Position numbers and translations under genes: made by a program
From: Candidatus Bathyarchaeota archaeon
GTDB taxonomy: Archaea; Thermoproteota; Bathyarchaeia; RBG-16-48-13; GCA-020355125
DNA: 30,763 bases
NCBI GenBank assembly: GCA_030670615.1
Contig: DAOVBJ010000001.1
Span: 1-30,763, forward strand
Direction of reading: 5' to 3'
Shown here: positions 7,768 to 16,976 of the stretch, piece after piece
Layout of the letters: each line of letters starts with the position of its first letter
Position numbering within the stretch: the stretch's first letter is position 1
The notes under the pieces: generated by a model
What the model was told of the DNA's origin: nothing
The model's input: the letters and a program-made list of their open reading frames with translations, nothing else
Database searches by the model: none

Positions 7768-9030
7768 TTACGTTATCTTTATCCCTCTAAGTATAACAGG
7801 TTTTCCACCCTTCATGACAAGCCTTATGTTCTCTTTCGGCGCCAAGACCATCACATCCTCTAGAGGATTCCCATCCACCACCATGATGTCCGCGATCTTA
7901 TTCCTCTCCAGAGTGCCGATCCTGTCACCGAGACCCATGACCTCAGACCCCGTCTTGGTACAGCAGGAGATCGCCTCCATAGCTGAGTATCCACCAAGCT
8001 CCATGAACGCCTTCATATTCTTGGGAATGACGTCGTAGGGCTCACAGCCAGTAACATCTGGGCCTATAGCCTGTTTACAACCCATCTCCCTACACAGCCT
8101 GACCGTAGTCTTGTTATGCTCGTAATTGATCTTGTGTCTCCTAAACGCCCACTCAGTGTAGTCGCCAATCTCAGTGAATCCCTTGGTCTCCTCATAGGCT
8201 TTGATGGGAGTATAACAGTTCCGAACAATGAACCTACCTGACTCCGCAGCCATCAGAGCCGCCTCCTCGTCGATGGCGGTTCCGTGCTCGATGGAATCGA
8301 CGCCACAAGCTAAGGCATGCCTTATTGGTGTCAGGCCATGGGCGTGAGCAGCGGTCATCTTACCGACGCAATGGGCTTCATAAACTATGGCCTTTAACTC
8401 TTCAGGGCTGAACTGGGGGTACTCAAGCTCATCCAGTTGGGATGATGTGCCCCCTCCAGCCATGACTTTTATGAAGTCAGCTCCATTGCGCAGTTGCTCC
8501 CTCACAGCCCTTCGGCACTCTGTGACCCCATCAGCTATCACACGTATGTCCCTCACCCATTCTAAGGGTAGGTGGTGGATATCTCCATGTCCAAACGTCT
8601 GCGAGATGAAGGCTCCTGAAGCCATGAATCTGGGGCCCTCTATTGTACTCTCCTCAATGGCCCTCTTAATCGAGGGCGTATACGGTGAGCCGCAGCACCG
8701 GGCGGCGGTGACTCCATGTTCTAGCATATTGTAGGCGTCTGAAATTGCCCGCGCAATACCTAGTGCTGTATCGTACCGTCCGGTAGTGTCCCCTCGTCTC
8801 CACCCAGTCAGGTGTACATGGGCGTCGATCAGACCTGGCATGATTGTCATGCCAGTTCCATCGAATATTTTTATCCCATGAGGGATGGTAACCTCATCCC
8901 TCTGCCCCACTTTTCTTATCCTGTCACCCTCTATAATAACGACTCCGTCTCTAAGAGCCTCCTTTTGAGTGCCATTGATGAGTAAACTACCGATAATGGC
9001 CTTAACGTCTTCACCCAATCCACACACCAC
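7768..9030 (-). CDS. Amidohydrolase, Xaa-Pro dipeptidase/prolidase-like subgroup
   Basis: MPGLIDAHVH, GADFIKVMAGGG, AAHAHG, DSIEHG, ADIMVVDGNPL. Confidence 0.88.
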   Translation of the reverse strand: MVCGLGEDVKAIIGSLLINGTQKEALRDGVVIIEGDRIRKVGQRDEVTIPHGIKIFDGTGMTIMPGLIDAHVHLTGWRRGDTTGRYDTALGIARAISDAYNMLEHGVTAARCCGSPYTPSIKRAIEESTIEGPRFMASGAFISQTFGHGDIHHLPLEWVRDIRVIADGVTECRRAVREQLRNGADFIKVMAGGGTSSQLDELEYPQFSPEELKAIVYEAHCVGKMTAAHAHGLTPIRHALACGVDSIEHGTAIDEEAALMAAESGRFIVRNCYTPIKAYEETKGFTEIGDYTEWAFRRHKINYEHNKTTVRLCREMGCKQAIGPDVTGCEPYDVIPKNMKAFMELGGYSAMEAISCCTKTGSEVMGLGDRIGTLERNKIADIMVVDGNPLEDVMVLAPKENIRLVMKGGKPVILRGIKIT

Positions 9031-9207: not shown

Positions 9208-10686
9208 CTAGATTTTCTGTTCATAGGCGTTTGTGAAGAAAAGTCGTGTTTCACCCATCGTCTTGACATTCAAAGGCTTGACCTCTATAATGATGGGGAA
9301 GTCGTTGGTTACCCTTCCCAAGGCTAGACAATAGTGTGGAGGCAGCTCTCGAGCGATCACATTAATGGTCTCCACGTCGACCATAGTCGCCTTTGACACG
9401 GCGGCTAAATCGTTTTCATTAGTGAAGTTGAAGAGGAAGACGTTGTCTGCCTGACGATAGATGCTGTCACTTATGCTGTCCGGCTGGTTGGTGATGAAGG
9501 TGCTAAAGACCCCGAGATGCCGCATGCGGGTGACTATGTCCTCCCAATAGGTCTTTCTCAGATAGAGGTGGGCTTCCTCTGCAAAGAGGAAGAGAGCTCT
9601 TAACACCCAGCGATCAAGCAAATTACACAGCTTACTCAACATAAACTCCACAACGATGTGACAAAATCTCGACGGCAACCCTCGGAGATTAACGATTAGA
9701 GCCCCTCCACTATTAAGCCCGAAAATTAGATCCTCCAACGTCGAGGCTTCCTGAGGGTTATCGGTCAAGAGGCCCGTGCTGACTAGACTATCGTATCGAC
9801 GGATAAGGGCATCTCTAACATAGTTATTTAATACTGATTCGATGGCTTTTCTAAGGTTCTTCAGGGTGAGTGTGCTTCTTTGTGACAGGGATGACCAGAT
9901 TCTTCGGATCTCCCAGGCTGAATTATCGGGAAGGTCGAGCACAGAGGACATGATCCGCAGAAAGACCCCGAGCCCCATGTATTCCAGGGTCACCTTGAAC
10001 CGTTTTCCCGGCGATAGAACGATGATTTTCTCGTGTGAAGCCGCTTTTTTGTAGTCTGCCCCATACCCTAAATTGACGTATTCCCCATTGACGTCGAAAA
10101 CGACGCAGATGCCTCCCTTCTCGATGAGGCTGAGGAGGAGCAGTTTTGAAAGATGGGATTTTCCAGTTCCCTTTTTGCCAGTAATGATGTTCAGCTTGCC
10201 ATCGATAGCCGTGAGGTTGACTGCGATTTCTGCACCCCCCTTCGTTGTTCCCAGGGTTATCGCGTTTTCTCCATGGAGCCCAATGAGTTCCAAGAATTCC
10301 CTGTCGGTCAAGTTTATGAGTTGGGAGGTTGAGCGGGAGGGTGTCCAGGAGATGTCGTGGTCGATTCTTCCATTCACTATGGCCTTGCGAATCTTGCAGC
10401 GGAAGACCTTCGCGTCTTTGATCACGTCGACGAAGGCCTTCACACCGAGGAAATCGAGGTTCCGTCCGTCAATGTTTTTGGTCGACGAATCCCTCAGAAT
10501 GTCCTCCAGCACCCCCGGGATATTCGCGTATCCGATGTTTGTAACCTGCACGATGAGGCTTCGGTTCACAGCGTTGTCCCTCACGATGATGTAGTCCCCC
10601 TTTTGGACACCCTGGGGTGGACAGGAAACGATATCCATGGTGTTTCCGTCAAGTTTATAGATGTGCATCATGGCCCTCACCATCAA
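9208..10686 (-). CDS. herA: HerA/FtsK-superfamily ATPase (DUF87/HerA-like helicase-translocase)
   Basis: N-terminal HAS-barrel-like region, Walker A GKKGTGKS, VFDVNGEY, Walker B AEEAH, R-H-L-G and TNQP motifs; start overlaps the nurA stop. Confidence 0.85.
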   Translation of the reverse strand: MMVRAMMHIYKLDGNTMDIVSCPPQGVQKGDYIIVRDNAVNRSLIVQVTNIGYANIPGVLEDILRDSSTKNIDGRNLDFLGVKAFVDVIKDAKVFRCKIRKAIVNGRIDHDISWTPSRSTSQLINLTDREFLELIGLHGENAITLGTTKGGAEIAVNLTAIDGKLNIITGKKGTGKSHLSKLLLLSLIEKGGICVVFDVNGEYVNLGYGADYKKAASHEKIIVLSPGKRFKVTLEYMGLGVFLRIMSSVLDLPDNSAWEIRRIWSSLSQRSTLTLKNLRKAIESVLNNYVRDALIRRYDSLVSTGLLTDNPQEASTLEDLIFGLNSGGALIVNLRGLPSRFCHIVVEFMLSKLCNLLDRWVLRALFLFAEEAHLYLRKTYWEDIVTRMRHLGVFSTFITNQPDSISDSIYRQADNVFLFNFTNENDLAAVSKATMVDVETINVIARELPPHYCLALGRVTNDFPIIIEVKPLNVKTMGETRLFFTNAYEQKI

Positions 10687-11741
10687 ATCCGTCTCGATGC
10701 GATGCCCCCGTAGGGTCCGAAGAGGATCTGCCGAACATTGGGTCGTCGGATGATCTTCAGATCGTAGTTTTCAGACACGTAGCGTTGCATGGCTAAGACT
10801 TCATTCGCTGAGAACCTTGACAGGATGTGTGCCAATCGAAGGGTCTCGGGGTAACTGTCAACGATCAAGTCGCTGCAGAGGAGATTTTCCACGGCCTGGA
10901 CGCCAGCTGCCTGCGAGACTTGTCGATCGATGTCCAAGCGAAAGCTCAGGGTTCCAGGCGAGAGCTTTACGGCGTATATTTTGCCGAAGAAGCGGAGGTA
11001 TTTCCCGTACTGGACGCGGACGACGTCGTCGATGTCGAGGAGGCAAGGGGCATTCCCAGAATCTAGTAACGAGTCCATCCTTCTTCCGAAGGCGGAGATG
11101 GAAGTCTTCTTGGATAAAGCTAGGATCACGTTTCGGGCATCCCTTGCTCGCTTGAGAAGGCTGCTTAAAATGGATATTGGGTTGTTAACCGTACGGGTGG
11201 TCAGCGAGCCGTCCCAGAGAAGGAGGGATTCTCGACGCGATTCACTAAGCTGTTTCTGAAGCCACCGCTCAAGGATGTTTCGGATGTGTTCAGGAATCCG
11301 CTCCAGAATAGGCGCTCCAACTCCCTCGTTCACGTCGAAACACCGTTGACGCAAGGCATTGTACAAGAAGTTTTTATTGGCTTCGGTGATGTGGAAGATG
11401 AAAGGGCCGTGGCGAACGTATTGATAGGCCTTATTCTCTCTCCAGACGATGCTGCCCCGAATTGCACAGAGAAATCCTTCCTTCGTTTCTCCTAAATCGA
11501 TGTTAGAGGCGTCCACTCCGAATACGGGAACCTCCTCTCCTGGATTTAACAGCGTGATCGGTTTGAGGAAGCTGTTTCCAATGGTGGGGTCTAACTCCAA
11601 CTCGTCCGCGAAGTCACCGCCGTCAAGCCCGGGCACTGCCATCGCCCTCGAAAGATTTAAGTCCACCACCTCCTTCAAGGAGGTGTATCCTATTTCGACG
11701 AAATTCTCTGGTGTTATCTGGCTGAATTCAGCTATTTCCAT
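10683..11741 (-). CDS. nurA: NurA-family nuclease
   Basis: FGVDAS (first catalytic Asp), LLWDGSL (second Asp), LALSKKT, and C-terminal YPETLRLAH, typical of NurA; coupled to herA. Confidence 0.82.
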   Translation of the reverse strand: MEIAEFSQITPENFVEIGYTSLKEVVDLNLSRAMAVPGLDGGDFADELELDPTIGNSFLKPITLLNPGEEVPVFGVDASNIDLGETKEGFLCAIRGSIVWRENKAYQYVRHGPFIFHITEANKNFLYNALRQRCFDVNEGVGAPILERIPEHIRNILERWLQKQLSESRRESLLLWDGSLTTRTVNNPISILSSLLKRARDARNVILALSKKTSISAFGRRMDSLLDSGNAPCLLDIDDVVRVQYGKYLRFFGKIYAVKLSPGTLSFRLDIDRQVSQAAGVQAVENLLCSDLIVDSYPETLRLAHILSRFSANEVLAMQRYVSENYDLKIIRRPNVRQILFGPYGGIASRRI

Positions 11742-11848: not shown

Positions 11849-11936
11849 GGTGCAGTGGGGAATCGTCAATATACCTAACCTCCTTTGCGATCAGTCGCAT
11901 GGGGTTCCCTTAAAACCCGATGCGAACCGCTGCACC
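11849..11936 (+). ncRNA. Candidate structured small RNA (three-way junction), family unknown
   Basis: Closing stem GGTGCAGTGG (11849-58)/CCGCTGCACC (11927-36); a G-U pair favours the + strand. Hairpin TCGCATGGGGTT (11895-906)/AACCCGATGCGA (11914-25). Bulged hairpin ATCG-T-CAA/TTGCGAT with a 15-nt loop. Upstream TATA at a suitable distance; no credible ORF. Confidence 0.55.
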
Positions 11937-11956
11937 CTCCGTTTTAGCGGAGGGTG
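11933..11956. terminator. Perfect 9-bp hairpin CACCCTCCG-TTTTAG-CGGAGGGTG (terminator, processing signal or alternative fold)
   Basis: Read directly; lies between the candidate RNA 3' end and the end of the convergent four-gene operon. Confidence 0.4.
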
Positions 11957-11992: not shown

Positions 11993-12418
11993 CTACTTAA
12001 CTCGAATGTAGCCATATTCTCTACCTTCCTTAACCCGCCTCAACGCGCCCTTTTTCGTCAGGTCTGTGAGTCGTCCCTTCACGGTTCCAACAGGATAGTG
12101 GATGGCATTCACCTTCATGACTTCAAGGAGTTCCCTCAGCTTCCTAGGTTTTTCTTTGCCCCATTCGGTGGAGAGAATTTTAAGGATTGCTTCGGGACAA
12201 GGGGTATCGGGCTCGACGGAGATTGAAGGTATGCTTGCTTGTCTTAGAATCGTTGGTTCCGCGATGGGTTTTATGAGCGTAATGTTGAAGGCCTGGGTTA
12301 GTTTATCCATAATGTTGGAAAAGTTGTTTATCGCTTCCAACACATCTTCCTTGGAGCCACTCACCTCAATTTCATTGTTTCCGAAACGGATTTTGATGGT
12401 GAAAGGCAGGCTACTCAT
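11993..12418 (-). CDS. Winged-helix protein, paralog 4 of 4
   Basis: N-terminal FTIKIRFGNNEIEVSGSKEDVLEAI; C-terminal wHTH-like TVKGRLTDLTKKGALRRVKEGREYGY; ATGA overlap with the upstream paralog. Confidence 0.8.
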   Translation of the reverse strand: MSSLPFTIKIRFGNNEIEVSGSKEDVLEAINNFSNIMDKLTQAFNITLIKPIAEPTILRQASIPSISVEPDTPCPEAILKILSTEWGKEKPRKLRELLEVMKVNAIHYPVGTVKGRLTDLTKKGALRRVKEGREYGYIRVK

Positions 12419-12921
12419 CGGTGTCCCCTCATTTTCACGTTTTGAAGCACTTTCTCGGCTTCTTTGATTCCCAGACTCTTGATTTTGTACTCGCCTCTTC
12501 CAACCCTTTCCACAAGACCGTCGTCGATCATCCCCTTCAACTTGTTAAGAATCGTCTTCAAAGCCTTGCCACTAACGGTTGCGATTTGAGTGACGGACAC
12601 GGACTCCTCAGCGGACAATCCGAGCTTGTTTCCAACGTAGACTCCGAGAAGAGAAAGCACTATCGCTTCTTCTGACGTCAGATCCCTCGGAGTGAGGATT
12701 AATCCTTCCGAAGAATACTCTATCACGCCCTCCAATGCCTGGGCAAGCTTGATCAAGTCGGGCTTGAAGACCAGTCTACTGGCTAGCTTGAACGCAGGAT
12801 ACACTTTGTTGAGGAAGTCTATGAACGCGATTGAAACAACTTCGGGACTCCCCTCAAAGTCCGCCTTGAACTCCCCGTATTCCGCATGCACTCGCAGCTT
12901 TCCCTCCACCATTCTTGACAC
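12415..12921 (-). CDS. Winged-helix protein, paralog 3 of 4
   Basis: LRVHAEYGEFKADFEGSPEVV...; LEGVIEYSSEGLIL; KLKGMIDDGLVERVGRGEYKI. Start may be ATG at 12912 (GAGGGAG 8 nt upstream). Confidence 0.8.
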   Translation of the reverse strand: MSRMVEGKLRVHAEYGEFKADFEGSPEVVSIAFIDFLNKVYPAFKLASRLVFKPDLIKLAQALEGVIEYSSEGLILTPRDLTSEEAIVLSLLGVYVGNKLGLSAEESVSVTQIATVSGKALKTILNKLKGMIDDGLVERVGRGEYKIKSLGIKEAEKVLQNVKMRGHR

Positions 12922-12925
12922 TCCC

Positions 12926-13429
12926 TCACATGAACGATTTAATCTTGGGGAGAACCTCTTCAGAAAAGGACTTTATCCCATACGTGGTGATCCGGTACTC
13001 TCCTCGACCCGCCCGTTCAACCCAATTCATCTGCACTAGCTCACTGAGCCTTGCCGCTGATGAACTCGGCTTTCCGCTAGTTATGGATATAATGTCGGAT
13101 ATCGACATGATGTCCAAGTCCAGTTTTCCCAACTGATAGCCGATGTACGTCTTCACTAGGTGGAGGAGAATAACCTCTCGCTCCCCAAGCAACTCTTGGG
13201 GGATAATCACGATCAACCCTTCAGGCGTTATGGCGATGATGCCCTCAACCCCCTTCACCAGCTTTTCCAGGTCGGTGGTGAGGGTCAGTCTGGAAACCAA
13301 TTCGTAAGTGGGCAACATCTTGTTCAAAAACTCAAGAAAGAACCTGACCACCTCGTTAATGTCGCCCGAAAATTTGACTTCGAGGCCCCGATACGTCACA
13401 ACGACTTCAACAACTTCGTCTCCACTCAT
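12926..13429 (-). CDS. Winged-helix protein, paralog 2 of 4
   Basis: VEVVVTYRGLEVKFSGDINEVV...; VEGIIAITPEGLIV; RLSELVQMNWVERAGRGEYRI; clearly similar to paralog 3. Confidence 0.8.
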   Translation of the reverse strand: MSGDEVVEVVVTYRGLEVKFSGDINEVVRFFLEFLNKMLPTYELVSRLTLTTDLEKLVKGVEGIIAITPEGLIVIIPQELLGEREVILLHLVKTYIGYQLGKLDLDIMSISDIISITSGKPSSSAARLSELVQMNWVERAGRGEYRITTYGIKSFSEEVLPKIKSFM

Positions 13430-13445
13430 CTTTTGCTCCCCTACC

Positions 13446-13895
13446 TTACGTCTTAAGTTTTAAAATCAACTCTTTAATCCACTTCTTCCCCGCGACTGAC
13501 AATCGATATCCGCTGCCTTCCTTGATTATGTTGCCTTCCCTCCTCATTTCACTTAAACGCGAACCGTACCCCGATGTACCGTGGCCGCTGAGTGATAGGA
13601 GAGCACCGACCTCTTTAGGCTCCAAGGGGTTCGGGTTCTGAGAGTAGAGAAGGAGGCCAATGCCTTCTTTACTGCTGACCCGGTTCTTGGGGATTATAAG
13701 TTGAGGGCCTTCGGAGGAGACTTCTATGATCCCGCCCAACTCCTCTTCTTGACCTGTGTCCGTGGTTGACATCATTTTGTCGATGACGACGAGCCACTCC
13801 GGAAAGGCCTCTAATCCCTGAACCACCTCGTCCAAGCTGTCCCCTTCGACTTCGATGTTTCCGTAAGGACGCTTCACCGTCACTCGAATTTTCAT
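13446..13895 (-). CDS. Winged-helix protein, paralog 1 of 4
   Basis: IRVTVKRPYGNIEVEGDSLDEVV...; LGGIIEVSSEGPQL; RLSEMRREGNIIKEGSGYRLS. Confidence 0.8.
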   Translation of the reverse strand: MKIRVTVKRPYGNIEVEGDSLDEVVQGLEAFPEWLVVIDKMMSTTDTGQEEELGGIIEVSSEGPQLIIPKNRVSSKEGIGLLLYSQNPNPLEPKEVGALLSLSGHGTSGYGSRLSEMRREGNIIKEGSGYRLSVAGKKWIKELILKLKT

Positions 13896-13918: not shown

Positions 13919-13965
13919 ATTTAAAAGTCTTTCGATAACGTTAATTTAACGTTAAATAACGTTAA
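13919..13965 (-). promoter_or_regulatory. TATA box (TTTTAAAT, 13926-13919) with three upstream tandem TAACGTTA palindromes
   Basis: TATA is ~24 nt upstream of the ATG at 13895 (leaderless geometry). TAACGTTAA at 13936, 13947 and 13957 (spacing 11 and 10 nt). Confidence 0.65.
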
Positions 13966-15099: not shown

Positions 15100-15747
15100 C
15101 TACCTCCATATTCCATCTTGTGTAGATTGCGTCTTTTCTAGCACTCGAACTAGAATGGGTACAACAGTCGCGAAGAAGAAGAAGTTAGATGCTTCATGAA
15201 TTATCCCAAGTGGAATTGGTACATTCATGGTCAGTAATCCGATCCATACTGATTTGTAAACGACTAGACCAACGATGGCATTAGTAATGAGATCGTAGGC
15301 AAGGGTGGCGAACAAACCCGCTGTACCATAGATTATATTACGTTCGAGGCCTTTGAACTTGCTCTTCGGGCTCCTTGAGGATGTTTTTCGTACAAGATAT
15401 CCAGCTACGACATATATGCTCTCGCTTATAATAACTGTAATGAGAACCGGTAGGGATAGACCAAAAGGGTTTAGTGTACCATAGACCAGCCACGAGATGG
15501 TGGCTACTGCTGCACCGGGGATTACCCCGAAGAACAGGCTTGTGGTAAAAACGATAGCGTCCATCAGGTTCACATTTGGTAGAGGGAGCATGGCATAGTT
15601 GGTTCCGATGCAGAGCGCTGCTAGCGTAGCGATGAGAGCGGTTCGCCTAGTGTTAGAGATTTTTAGAGCATTTGTCTTCTTTATCGTTGCAGCTGGTTTA
15701 TTGTTTTTCAATGGGTCTTCATGGTCTTTGCTTTTGAGCACCGACAT
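15100..15747 (-). CDS. ECF transporter S component, CbrT-like (cobalamin candidate)
   Basis: About six hydrophobic helices, ALIATLAALC (AxxxA-type helix), LPNVNLMDAIVF, DLITN; adjacent to a DUF4430 gene. Confidence 0.75.
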   Translation of the reverse strand: MSVLKSKDHEDPLKNNKPAATIKKTNALKISNTRRTALIATLAALCIGTNYAMLPLPNVNLMDAIVFTTSLFFGVIPGAAVATISWLVYGTLNPFGLSLPVLITVIISESIYVVAGYLVRKTSSRSPKSKFKGLERNIIYGTAGLFATLAYDLITNAIVGLVVYKSVWIGLLTMNVPIPLGIIHEASNFFFFATVVPILVRVLEKTQSTQDGIWR

Positions 15748-16093: not shown

Positions 16094-16353
16094 GTGTTCC
16101 CTCTCGCTGATGAGGACTTAGCTCTCTACACGGCAGTCCTCAACGCCTTACAAGCTGTAGTAAATATCAATGCGGCTTATTGGGTAGTATATACTTCGCT
16201 CCTCGTCGATGCAATTAAGGATGTGTACAGCAACGAAAACGACAACAATCGGTGGAGGGTGTACGCTATAAATGGAGTACACGCCTATATAAGTGCAGAC
16301 CAATATACCTTAAGGATGGAGATCAGTTCGAGTGGACGTATCAAAAGTATTGA
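16094..16353 (+). pseudogene. Frameshifted, 5'-degraded second DUF4430 gene
   Basis: LLVDAIKDVYSN...W..YAINGVHAYISADQYTL continues in another frame as KDGDQFEWTYQKY* (one base missing at ~16311); no clean N-terminus. Confidence 0.6.
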
Positions 16354-16976
16354 TCCCGACACACCGCTCCAGACGAATTCGGAGTCGAGGGACAACGAGA
16401 TCCGATATCAAGGAGCTTCTACTGCTATTAATTGTCGACCGAGAGGGGCCCATAGGACGTTATCGCCTCAAAGATATGCTCGGTCTCTCAGGCCACGAGG
16501 GATCGGTGCGGCAGATGCTGGTCAACCTCCAGAGCCAAGGCTATCTTGCAGCAAGTCGATCTGGATGCACTCTCACCCCCACGGGAACAACGTTCTTAGA
16601 GGCATGTTTGACTTCCAAACACATAGCAGCCATCAAAAGGGTTGGTGCTCAACTCTTAACAGTGGGTCCCGTGACCCTCGGCGTCCACCTCCAGAATAAG
16701 GCTGACCACATCGAATCTGCCATGAGCCTTCGTGATTTAGCCGTTAGAGGTGGAGCGACGGGAGCGACGATCCTTCTCTTCAAAGAAGGAGTGTTAAGCA
16801 TCCCCTCTGTTCATCCAGATTTTCTGTCCGAGCACCCTAACCTAATCAAGGAACTCCAAGAAACCTTCACCTTGGAAGAGGATGATGTCATCGCTCTTAT
16901 CTCAGCCGAAGACGAGTGGATAGGCGTTGAAGCAGCAATAACCCTCGCCGACGCTCTCTCCGGGAGCAAACGTTAA
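16350..16976 (+). CDS. DUF4443-like protein (N-terminal HTH + DUF4443 domain)
   Basis: GPIGRYRLKDMLGL HTH; LRDLAVRGGATGATILLF. Start proposed at TTG 16350, overlapping the TGA of the preceding remnant (ORF track uses GTG 16332). Confidence 0.7.
   Translation: MIPTHRSRRIRSRGTTRSDIKELLLLLIVDREGPIGRYRLKDMLGLSGHEGSVRQMLVNLQSQGYLAASRSGCTLTPTGTTFLEACLTSKHIAAIKRVGAQLLTVGPVTLGVHLQNKADHIESAMSLRDLAVRGGATGATILLFKEGVLSIPSVHPDFLSEHPNLIKELQETFTLEEDDVIALISAEDEWIGVEAAITLADALSGSKR

Follow-up and report, generated by a model that had tools for sequence, protein, structure and literature searches.

The window analysed here is a stretch of 30,763 nucleotides from a Candidatus Bathyarchaeota archaeon (GenBank assembly GCA_030670615.1, contig DAOVBJ010000001.1, positions 1 to 30,763), and its subject is an operon of four small genes, called A, B, C and D, which lies in front of genes for a NurA nuclease and a HerA-type ATPase. 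Judged by homology, the four products belong to an undescribed archaeal protein family with an N-terminal hairpin-helix module and a C-terminal winged helix. The favoured function, rated at about one chance in two, is that of an autoregulated, probably hetero-oligomeric DNA-binding module which controls or targets the second NurA-HerA pair of this genome. An autoregulatory, sequence-specific role is the best-supported part of that reading because conserved operator-like repeats stand at the promoter of the operon.

The four co-oriented genes, coding for 141-168 amino acids, lie on the minus strand exactly where the original prediction had placed them (Table 1), and the ATGA stop/start overlap between C and D at 12415-12418 is real. 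A and B are separated by 16 nucleotides that hold a GGGGAG ribosome-binding site, and B and C by 4 nucleotides if C begins at GTG 12921. The start of C is likelier to be ATG 12912, since GAGGGAG precedes it and the resulting 165 amino acids match the length of the close homologue P0005. The predicted adjacency to nurA-herA was also borne out: both genes pass the Pfam cut-offs and lie directly downstream of D, with nurA after a gap of 251 nucleotides and herA overlapping nurA by 4.

Pairwise, iterated and profile-profile comparisons and a tree agree that the four are kept, diverged, translationally coupled paralogs, as had been proposed. In blastp, B and C match over their full length (6e-28, 36% identity), A matches B at 1e-4 and C at 3e-4, and A matches D at 0.014 in the N-terminus only; B-D and C-D gave no significant pairwise match. 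A jackhmmer search seeded with any one of the four, on the open reading frames of related loci, converges on all four types, and hhalign places a D-type profile on a B/C profile over 128 columns (90.7% probability, E 1.3e-6). By sequence comparison, then, A, B, C and D are true paralogs, far beyond chance. A maximum-likelihood tree of 207 family members resolves groups for A, B and C beside a D/D-rev clade with 99% support, and each gene of the window groups with its own orthologues. This topology points to four ancient orthogroups whose duplications predate the radiation of the class Bathyarchaeia.

No characterised family takes these proteins in, in line with the first assessment of the sequence: searches of Pfam, NCBIfam, PADLOC and the PDB assign A-D to none. 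Pfam and NCBIfam gave no match above cut-off for A-D, the best Pfam model being Penicillinase_R at 1e-3 for D, and the weak matches in PADLOC-DB 2.0 (5e-5 to 0.04) involve only the winged-helix ends of AbiEi, CasR and CARF3 models. The 169 homologues found are called hypothetical in all but two named cases, which carry isolated automatic labels. A profile search of 1.84 billion cluster representatives returned 434 matches at E <= 1e-3, and the Atlas clusters of the family are nearly all labelled 'hypothetical protein' and come from Bathyarchaeota and Nitrososphaerota. Literature searches found no description of these winged-helix proteins. Such partners are mentioned neither in a 2026 review of NurA (PMC13748450) nor in a 2026 genomics paper that covers the NurA-HerA-Mre11 of Nitrososphaera (PMC13707971).

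The proposed architecture, an N-terminal beta-hairpin/helix module followed by a C-terminal winged helix, is supported by an AlphaFold2 model of C built from 25 homologues, which has a predicted local distance difference test score (pLDDT) of 88 and a predicted template modelling score (pTM) of 0.71. Structure prediction, fold search and PDB profile search all uphold the winged helix. It occupies residues 77-168, with a helix at 83-99, a helix-turn-helix at 110-133, a wing at 137-147 and a last helix at 149-167. In Foldseek and VIA searches this half superposes on dozens of MarR, ArsR/SmtB, PadR, HxlR and AspA chains with Z scores of 9-11, many of them DNA-bound regulators, and the profile search of the PDB found the DNA-binding domain of CooA (2.4e-5) and the ArsR protein 6J0E (0.01).

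The N-terminal half of the C model consists of strands at 9-15 and 18-24, helices at 26-40, 44-50 and 56-63, and a second hairpin with strands at 67-70 and 73-76. The sequence pattern first written down for the N-termini fails when taken literally, matching none of the four proteins as a regular expression. The looser pattern behind it is real: an alternating hydrophobic strand, [YF]G/R, a second strand, a G and an acidic helix start (E/D)V. The central motif G[IV]I..[ST].EG was found, as expected, in three of the proteins (A, B and C) and is absent from D. D-type proteins keep the first hairpin, the helix and the winged helix, and a variable linker replaces the middle part, so the strand-strand-helix unit is what all four share. 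When the N-terminal 79 residues are modelled by themselves from 98 homologues, they reach a pLDDT of 81 and a pTM of only 0.48. This isolated domain found no structural match: the best PDB hit in Foldseek had an E value of 0.55, the best Z in an exhaustive VIA search of 48,161 chains was 3.0, and a search of the AlphaFold DB clusters returned only its own family. The isoelectric point (pI) is 4.4-5.6 for the acidic N-terminal modules and 8.3-10 for the basic C-terminal halves.

Relatives keep both the array and its link to nurA-herA, as a synteny survey of Bathyarchaeia and other Thermoproteota indicates. The C type occurs in 253 of the 401 genomes of the class (153 of the 219 high-quality ones), mostly in a tandem B-C pair. 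At 66 Bathyarchaeia loci, which carry two to five paralog copies each, the gene orders seen most often are 'A B C D NurA HerA', 'A B C NurA HerA' and 'B C d(rev) NurA HerA', and the flanking genes differ and are unrelated. Median distances at A>B, B>C and C>D are 0-3 nucleotides, and 85-95% of these junctions measure 20 nucleotides or less, which equals the NurA>HerA junction; NurA and HerA are a known complex. There are lineages in which the last paralog and nurA share an overlap of 4-17 nucleotides. Beyond the class, a D-type profile detects the family in 78 of the 201 genomes of the phylum. Of 15 loci outside the class, 12, which come from eight families, carry B and/or C types and a D-type gene within a few kilobases of HerA; the usual order is 'B C d(rev) NurA HerA' or its A-containing form. 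One family, f20, had at first been taken to lack the paralogs and NurA together, as the C-type and window NurA queries both went unmatched there; this was withdrawn. A Pfam NurA search, with one locus viewed, found a divergent version in that family: gatD-gatE, a D-like and an A-like gene, then NurA-HerA. More distantly, one relative is fused to DUF488 (Pfam 2e-26), and two others have an N-terminal domain with a PD-(D/E)xK-like motif, read from the sequence and without Pfam confirmation. These putative fusions fit a general link of the family to helicase-nuclease machinery.

The promoter of the operon carries the evidence for sequence-specific binding. Three TAACGTTA palindromes have their centres 10 and 11 bp apart, and the array ends 2 nucleotides upstream of a transcription factor B recognition element (BRE). 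The TATA box TTTTAAAT lies about 27 nucleotides ahead of the ATG of A, so the operon transcript is predicted to be near-leaderless. The genome (1.2 Mb) has 20 copies of TAACGTTA, as expected by chance, and three of the 20 are in this array, which is its only triple cluster of AACGTT. A wider regulon was considered and rejected, since the operator cluster is unique in the genome: only four other AACGTT clusters occur, with two sites each.

At orthologous loci a GAAA(G/A)nTTTTAAA element is found as well, and directly against the TATA box the upstream regions of A-type genes hold repeats with an ACGT core, two to four in number, which are spaced by about 11 bp or take the form ACGTTACGT. These repeats persist at loci whose C proteins are only 32-47% identical to that of the window. 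At least two ACGT in 100 nucleotides are present in 25 of 28 non-identical A-led promoters and in 0 of 28 B-led ones, counts of non-independent events because the genomes are related. Divergent D-type genes share a different conserved palindrome with nurA, TTGTxCA ... TGCGCATGCGCAAC, directly upstream of the nurA TATA box. As the strongest functional evidence, these footprints indicate that family members bind their own promoters in a sequence-specific way, the A and D types apparently at different sites.

The partner pair is an unusual one. The NurA of the window has no significant sequence match in the PDB, and its HerA is distant from the solved HerA proteins (4D2I at 8.7e-5; the closest by sequence, 8J4U, at 6.6e-6). 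8J4U is the ATPase of the Sir2-HerA defence system. Against PADLOC, this HerA weakly matches the HerA and mad8 models (1e-13 to 1e-8) and NurA matches none. No mre11 or rad50 gene is present in the window. Contig C110 of the same genome holds the 3' part of a NurA gene (cut by the contig end), a HerA whose DUF87 match is much stronger (1e-31) and an Mre11-type phosphoesterase. By gene content this is a canonical NurA-HerA-Mre11 set, so the genome has two NurA-HerA systems. Among 26 close relatives, counting this genome, the window-type HerA is found in 17 and the C110-type in 10, with both in several. The idea that the paralogs replace Mre11-Rad50 was ruled out by this cluster and by open reading frames with a Rad50 hook elsewhere in the genomes of relatives. 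Given the divergence of the pair and the coexisting canonical set, the paralogs go with a distinct, widely kept NurA-HerA subtype and are no Mre11-Rad50 stand-in.

In the favoured reading, A-D would be made in fixed proportion from one transcript and would associate through their strand-strand-helix modules. The resulting module would be a sequence-specific DNA binder with two jobs. One job would be to control its own promoter through the three helically phased TAACGTTA sites that abut the BRE and TATA box, with the A type as the likely reader of this operator. The other would be to control the adjacent divergent NurA-HerA pair, or to deliver NurA-HerA to DNA; here the D type would serve nurA-herA as its dedicated subunit. 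What the data show is the homology, the fold of the C-terminal half, the conserved gene content and order, the tight coupling, the operator-like footprints with their correlation to gene content and the linkage to a divergent NurA-HerA. That the proteins bind DNA at these sites, form hetero-oligomers and affect NurA-HerA in any way are the steps that we infer. The four would probably form a hetero-oligomer, judging from junctions as tight as that of nurA-herA, four ancient orthogroups and an N-terminal module that is not compact when modelled alone.

Several observations weigh against this reading, in addition to the relatedness of the genomes behind the promoter counts. Four paralogs far exceed what a simple repressor needs. 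In the B/C group the wing (R..G.Y) is conserved and the recognition helix is not strongly so, and conservation of a wing is compatible with contact to a protein as well as to DNA. Some unrelated factor could be the one that reads the operator. In the window nurA-herA has a promoter of its own, 250 nucleotides downstream, so it may not be co-regulated with the paralogs. Finally, one clade carries an A-like gene, a reverse gene and (A) B C beside gatD-gatE, apart from nurA-herA, so A/B/C can persist without that adjacency. The nurA-herA of this clade retains a divergent D-type gene directly upstream; as D stays when A/B/C move, no other copy is linked as closely to nurA as the D type.

The main rival, itself unlikely, is that the paralogs are stoichiometric structural subunits of the NurA-HerA machine, namely a DNA-end, lesion or site-recognition/loading factor joined through the N-terminal modules, the promoter repeats being ordinary autoregulation or a loading site. 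The operon is coupled as tightly as the known NurA-HerA complex, the last paralog of some lineages overlaps nurA, three to five paralogs are retained and the linkage is kept at phylum level, all of which would suit subunits. So would a NurA and HerA far from the canonical pair that coexists with Mre11 in the same genome, and a relative fused to a nuclease-like domain beside an XPB helicase. Subunits would fit less well with the frequent placing of D-type genes divergent from nurA around a shared palindromic control region, which is a classic regulator layout, with A/B/C standing apart from nurA-herA in one clade, or with a winged helix whose best matches are sequence-specific regulators. The control-module and structural-subunit readings are not mutually exclusive, and the data do not separate them. 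A bolder proposal, which we hold to be rather improbable, is that A-D assemble by way of the strand-strand-helix modules into a defined hetero-oligomer that serves as the DNA-recognition/loading subunit of a second NurA-HerA machine independent of Mre11/Rad50, with an antisense structured RNA in the loci of some lineages. If true, archaea would have a DNA-processing complex of a new kind, whose winged helices steer a HerA motor to specific sites, by a logic like that of FtsK-gamma reading KOPS (FtsK orienting polar sequences).

The remaining readings are given small chances. Ordinary independent transcription factors, acting on their own or other targets and adjacent to nurA-herA by a frozen accident of gene order, would agree with a regulator-like winged helix, autoregulatory footprints, the separation of A/B/C from nurA-herA in one clade and the separate nurA promoter of the window. 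This is improbable, as the adjacency has outlasted rearrangement, inverted D genes and altered flanks through divergence on the scale of the phylum, a D-type gene stays at nurA where other paralogs have moved, stop/start overlaps with nurA occur, and the unique operator cluster gives no sign of a wider regulon. Little more than a slim chance goes likewise to defence against viruses or plasmids, in which a HerA-type ATPase and nuclease effector would be armed or checked by winged-helix sensors or repressors, as in Sir2-HerA, DUF4297-HerA and BrxR/CapW. The weak PADLOC matches of HerA, its closeness to 8J4U, the winged-helix regulators that commonly head defence operons and the nuclease-fused relative beside an XPB helicase in an apparent island all lean that way. 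The system is nevertheless present in 153 of the 219 high-quality genomes of the class, usually with one tandem B-C pair each, and in several other families of the phylum; its orthogroups are vertically inherited, housekeeping gatD-gatE recurs in the neighbourhood, A-D and NurA have no convincing PADLOC match, and mobile-element genes were not seen at the loci examined. Least probable are the polymerising nucleoid or scaffold proteins, Lsr2-like, ESCRT-II-like or KITE-like, to which the original prediction had looked for analogies. The N-terminal oligomerisation domain of Lsr2 is a beta-hairpin followed by a helix, and the module here resembles it in topology and, with its pTM of 0.48, is not predicted to be compact alone. 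The likeness to Lsr2 stops at topology: the N-terminal domain has no structural match, Lsr2 ends in an AT-hook-like domain where these proteins have a winged helix, and an operator-like site found once in the genome speaks for specific binding and not for binding all over the genome. The ESCRT-II and KITE analogies fell because each protein has a single winged helix and no tandem pair, and because its best matches are MarR/ArsR/PadR-type DNA binders; Foldseek and VIA gave no match to Lsr2, ESCRT-II or kleisin-interacting winged-helix proteins, and no Vps25-, ScpB- or MukE-type chain was among the top matches of the C model.

Among known systems, the canonical archaeal HerA-NurA of Sulfolobus and Pyrococcus (4D2I) is the nearest for the partner pair. 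NurA-HerA is regarded as the minimal machinery with which archaea resect DNA ends, together with Mre11-Rad50. The window shares with it a NurA-domain nuclease and an adjacent DUF87/HerA P-loop ATPase, encoded as an overlapping pair. The canonical operons read herA-mre11-rad50-nurA, whereas this locus lacks the mre11/rad50 partnership and has winged-helix paralogs in front instead, and its NurA and HerA are very divergent from the canonical proteins.

For the paralogs themselves, the nearest comparison is with regulators of the MarR, ArsR/SmtB and PadR types (BldR 3F3X, AF1382 2QVO, SmtB 8QKF, AspA 5K5O). The C-terminal 90 residues share their helix-helix-helix-wing-helix fold (Z 9-11, root-mean-square deviation 1.5-3 A), and palindromic or repeated sites beside the gene's own promoter are a further likeness. 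The window family differs in its unmatched N-terminal half and in having coupled sets of paralogs rather than one homodimer gene. At the level of sequence models, A-D match neither of the MarR families (PF01047/PF12802) at E <= 1, and only distant relatives such as P0102 come near, with 24.3 bits against a cut-off of 24.6. The MarR-type winged helix-turn-helix core is present in the C model at residues 77-168 (Z 9-10), and the dimerisation arms of MarR, made by flanking N- and C-terminal helices, are unlike the hairpin-helix-helix-helix-hairpin order of the N-terminal half of C. With ArsR/SmtB the likeness is of fold only (SmtB, Z 9.8), as the Pfam model HTH_5 gave no match for A-D. PafBC, BrxR and CapW, which stand at the head of operons for DNA damage or defence, are also winged-helix proteins encoded with, and presumably controlling, DNA-processing genes, and PafBC is the product of two adjacent paralogous genes. 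The window family is set apart from them by the lack of a WYL or other sensor domain, a different N-terminal module, up to five paralogs and an archaeal BRE/TATA promoter.

Across an entire class of archaea, and in several further lineages of the Thermoproteota, the most widespread NurA-HerA pair is a divergent subtype. It is accompanied by 3-5 undescribed winged-helix proteins of its own and by a conserved control element, and can coexist with a canonical NurA-HerA-Mre11 set. If the paralogs regulate, they would be the first candidates for dedicated regulators of archaeal break processing, in uncultured and globally abundant sediment archaea; if they are subunits, the NurA-HerA machine gains a new DNA-recognition part. 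In both cases the locus lends itself to a concrete test: its proteins are small and expressible, and the 29-bp DNA site and the partner pair are both defined.

Table 1. Features of the winged-helix/NurA-HerA locus in the window and of related loci (the latter marked by locus number).
Feature	Position	Strand	Remarks
Paralog A	13446-13895	minus	149 amino acids; strand-strand-helix module, short middle with GIIEVSSEG motif, winged helix
Paralog B	12926-13429	minus	167 amino acids; complete N-terminal domain and winged helix
Paralog C	12415-12921	minus	168 amino acids from GTG 12921; 165 from ATG 12912, likelier
Paralog D	11993-12418	minus	141 amino acids; strand-strand-helix module, variable linker, winged helix; middle helices and second hairpin lacking
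nurA, divergent NurA nuclease	10683-11741	minus	352 amino acids; Pfam NurA 8.8e-8, 32.4 bits against a cut-off of 21
herA, divergent HerA-type ATPase	9208-10686	minus	492 amino acids; Pfam DUF87 5.6e-11, 43 bits against a cut-off of 23
Operator-like array, three TAACGTTA palindromes	13936-13964 (13957-13964, 13947-13954, 13936-13943)	minus	read from the sequence
BRE-like CGAAAGA; TATA box TTTTAAAT	13928-13934; 13919-13926	minus	promoter by consensus only
GC-rich hairpin CACCCTCCG ... CGGAGGGTG	11933-11956	minus	just past the stop of D; kept in close relatives
Near-palindromic TATA box TTTATAAG / CTTATAAA	11817-11824	both	about 29 nucleotides upstream of the plus-strand RNA start
Structured RNA candidate, 85-91 nucleotides	11849-11936	plus	antisense to the operon; between D and nurA
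Neighbours: DUF4443 protein, riboflavin-type S component, amidohydrolase	16332-16976, 15100-15747, 7768-9030	plus, minus, minus	amidohydrolase downstream of herA
TTGTxCA ... TGCGCATGCGCAAC element	D-rev/nurA intergenic		L033, L040, L062, L066, L072, L078-L081, L084, L087
Second NurA-HerA cluster, contig C110	L046:10-3179		same genome
Reverse gene of the gatD-gatE-linked version	L064:4580-5275	minus	equivalents in L059, L065, L068, L070, L074, L076, L077
XPB-linked variant	L133:2546-4689		also a 10.5-kb ENA contig

The interval between D and nurA holds the antisense RNA candidate, which folds into a three-way junction with a conserved loop containing ACCUCC (minimum free energy -37.4 kcal/mol, z -4.8). 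Seven distinct orthologous sequences are available. Their closing stem of 10-11 bp is maintained by G-U pairs that are valid only on the plus strand, which assigns the RNA to that strand, and the second hairpin shows compensatory changes. The candidate is present as a single copy in the genome and is restricted to loci that have a co-oriented D gene and a D-nurA gap of 200-250 nucleotides; searches with Rfam and ARAGORN gave no Rfam and no tRNA match. The near-palindromic TATA box beside it, about 80 nucleotides upstream of the nurA ATG on the minus strand, is kept in aligned relatives and is a possible bidirectional promoter for nurA (minus) and the antisense RNA (plus). The GC-rich hairpin after D is a possible end of the A-D transcript.

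The genes that neighbour the locus are ordinary ones, for a DUF4443 protein whose DNA-binding end is CggR_N-like, a riboflavin-type S component of an energy-coupling factor (ECF) transporter, and an amidohydrolase. Neither the surroundings of the window locus nor the other loci examined showed mobile-element genes. In the version linked to gatD-gatE, the reverse gene codes for 230-255 amino acids, has no Pfam match and always lies with the A-like gene on one side and the B-C pair on the other.

Proteins in which two paralogs are naturally fused were also considered and rejected, as the long open frames of 326-358 amino acids proved to be stop-to-stop or stop-containing frames. A protein that joins a kinase to a truncated B and a truncated C (P0047) was given no weight, an assembly error being uncheckable on its 2-kb contig. 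The XPB-linked variant consists of a truncated member of the family (141 amino acids), a protein of 173 amino acids with an E-x-K nuclease-like motif, and a fusion of 376 amino acids between a PD-(D/E)xK-like N-terminal domain and a full family domain; an XPB/Rad25-type helicase and an unknown protein of 258 amino acids come next.

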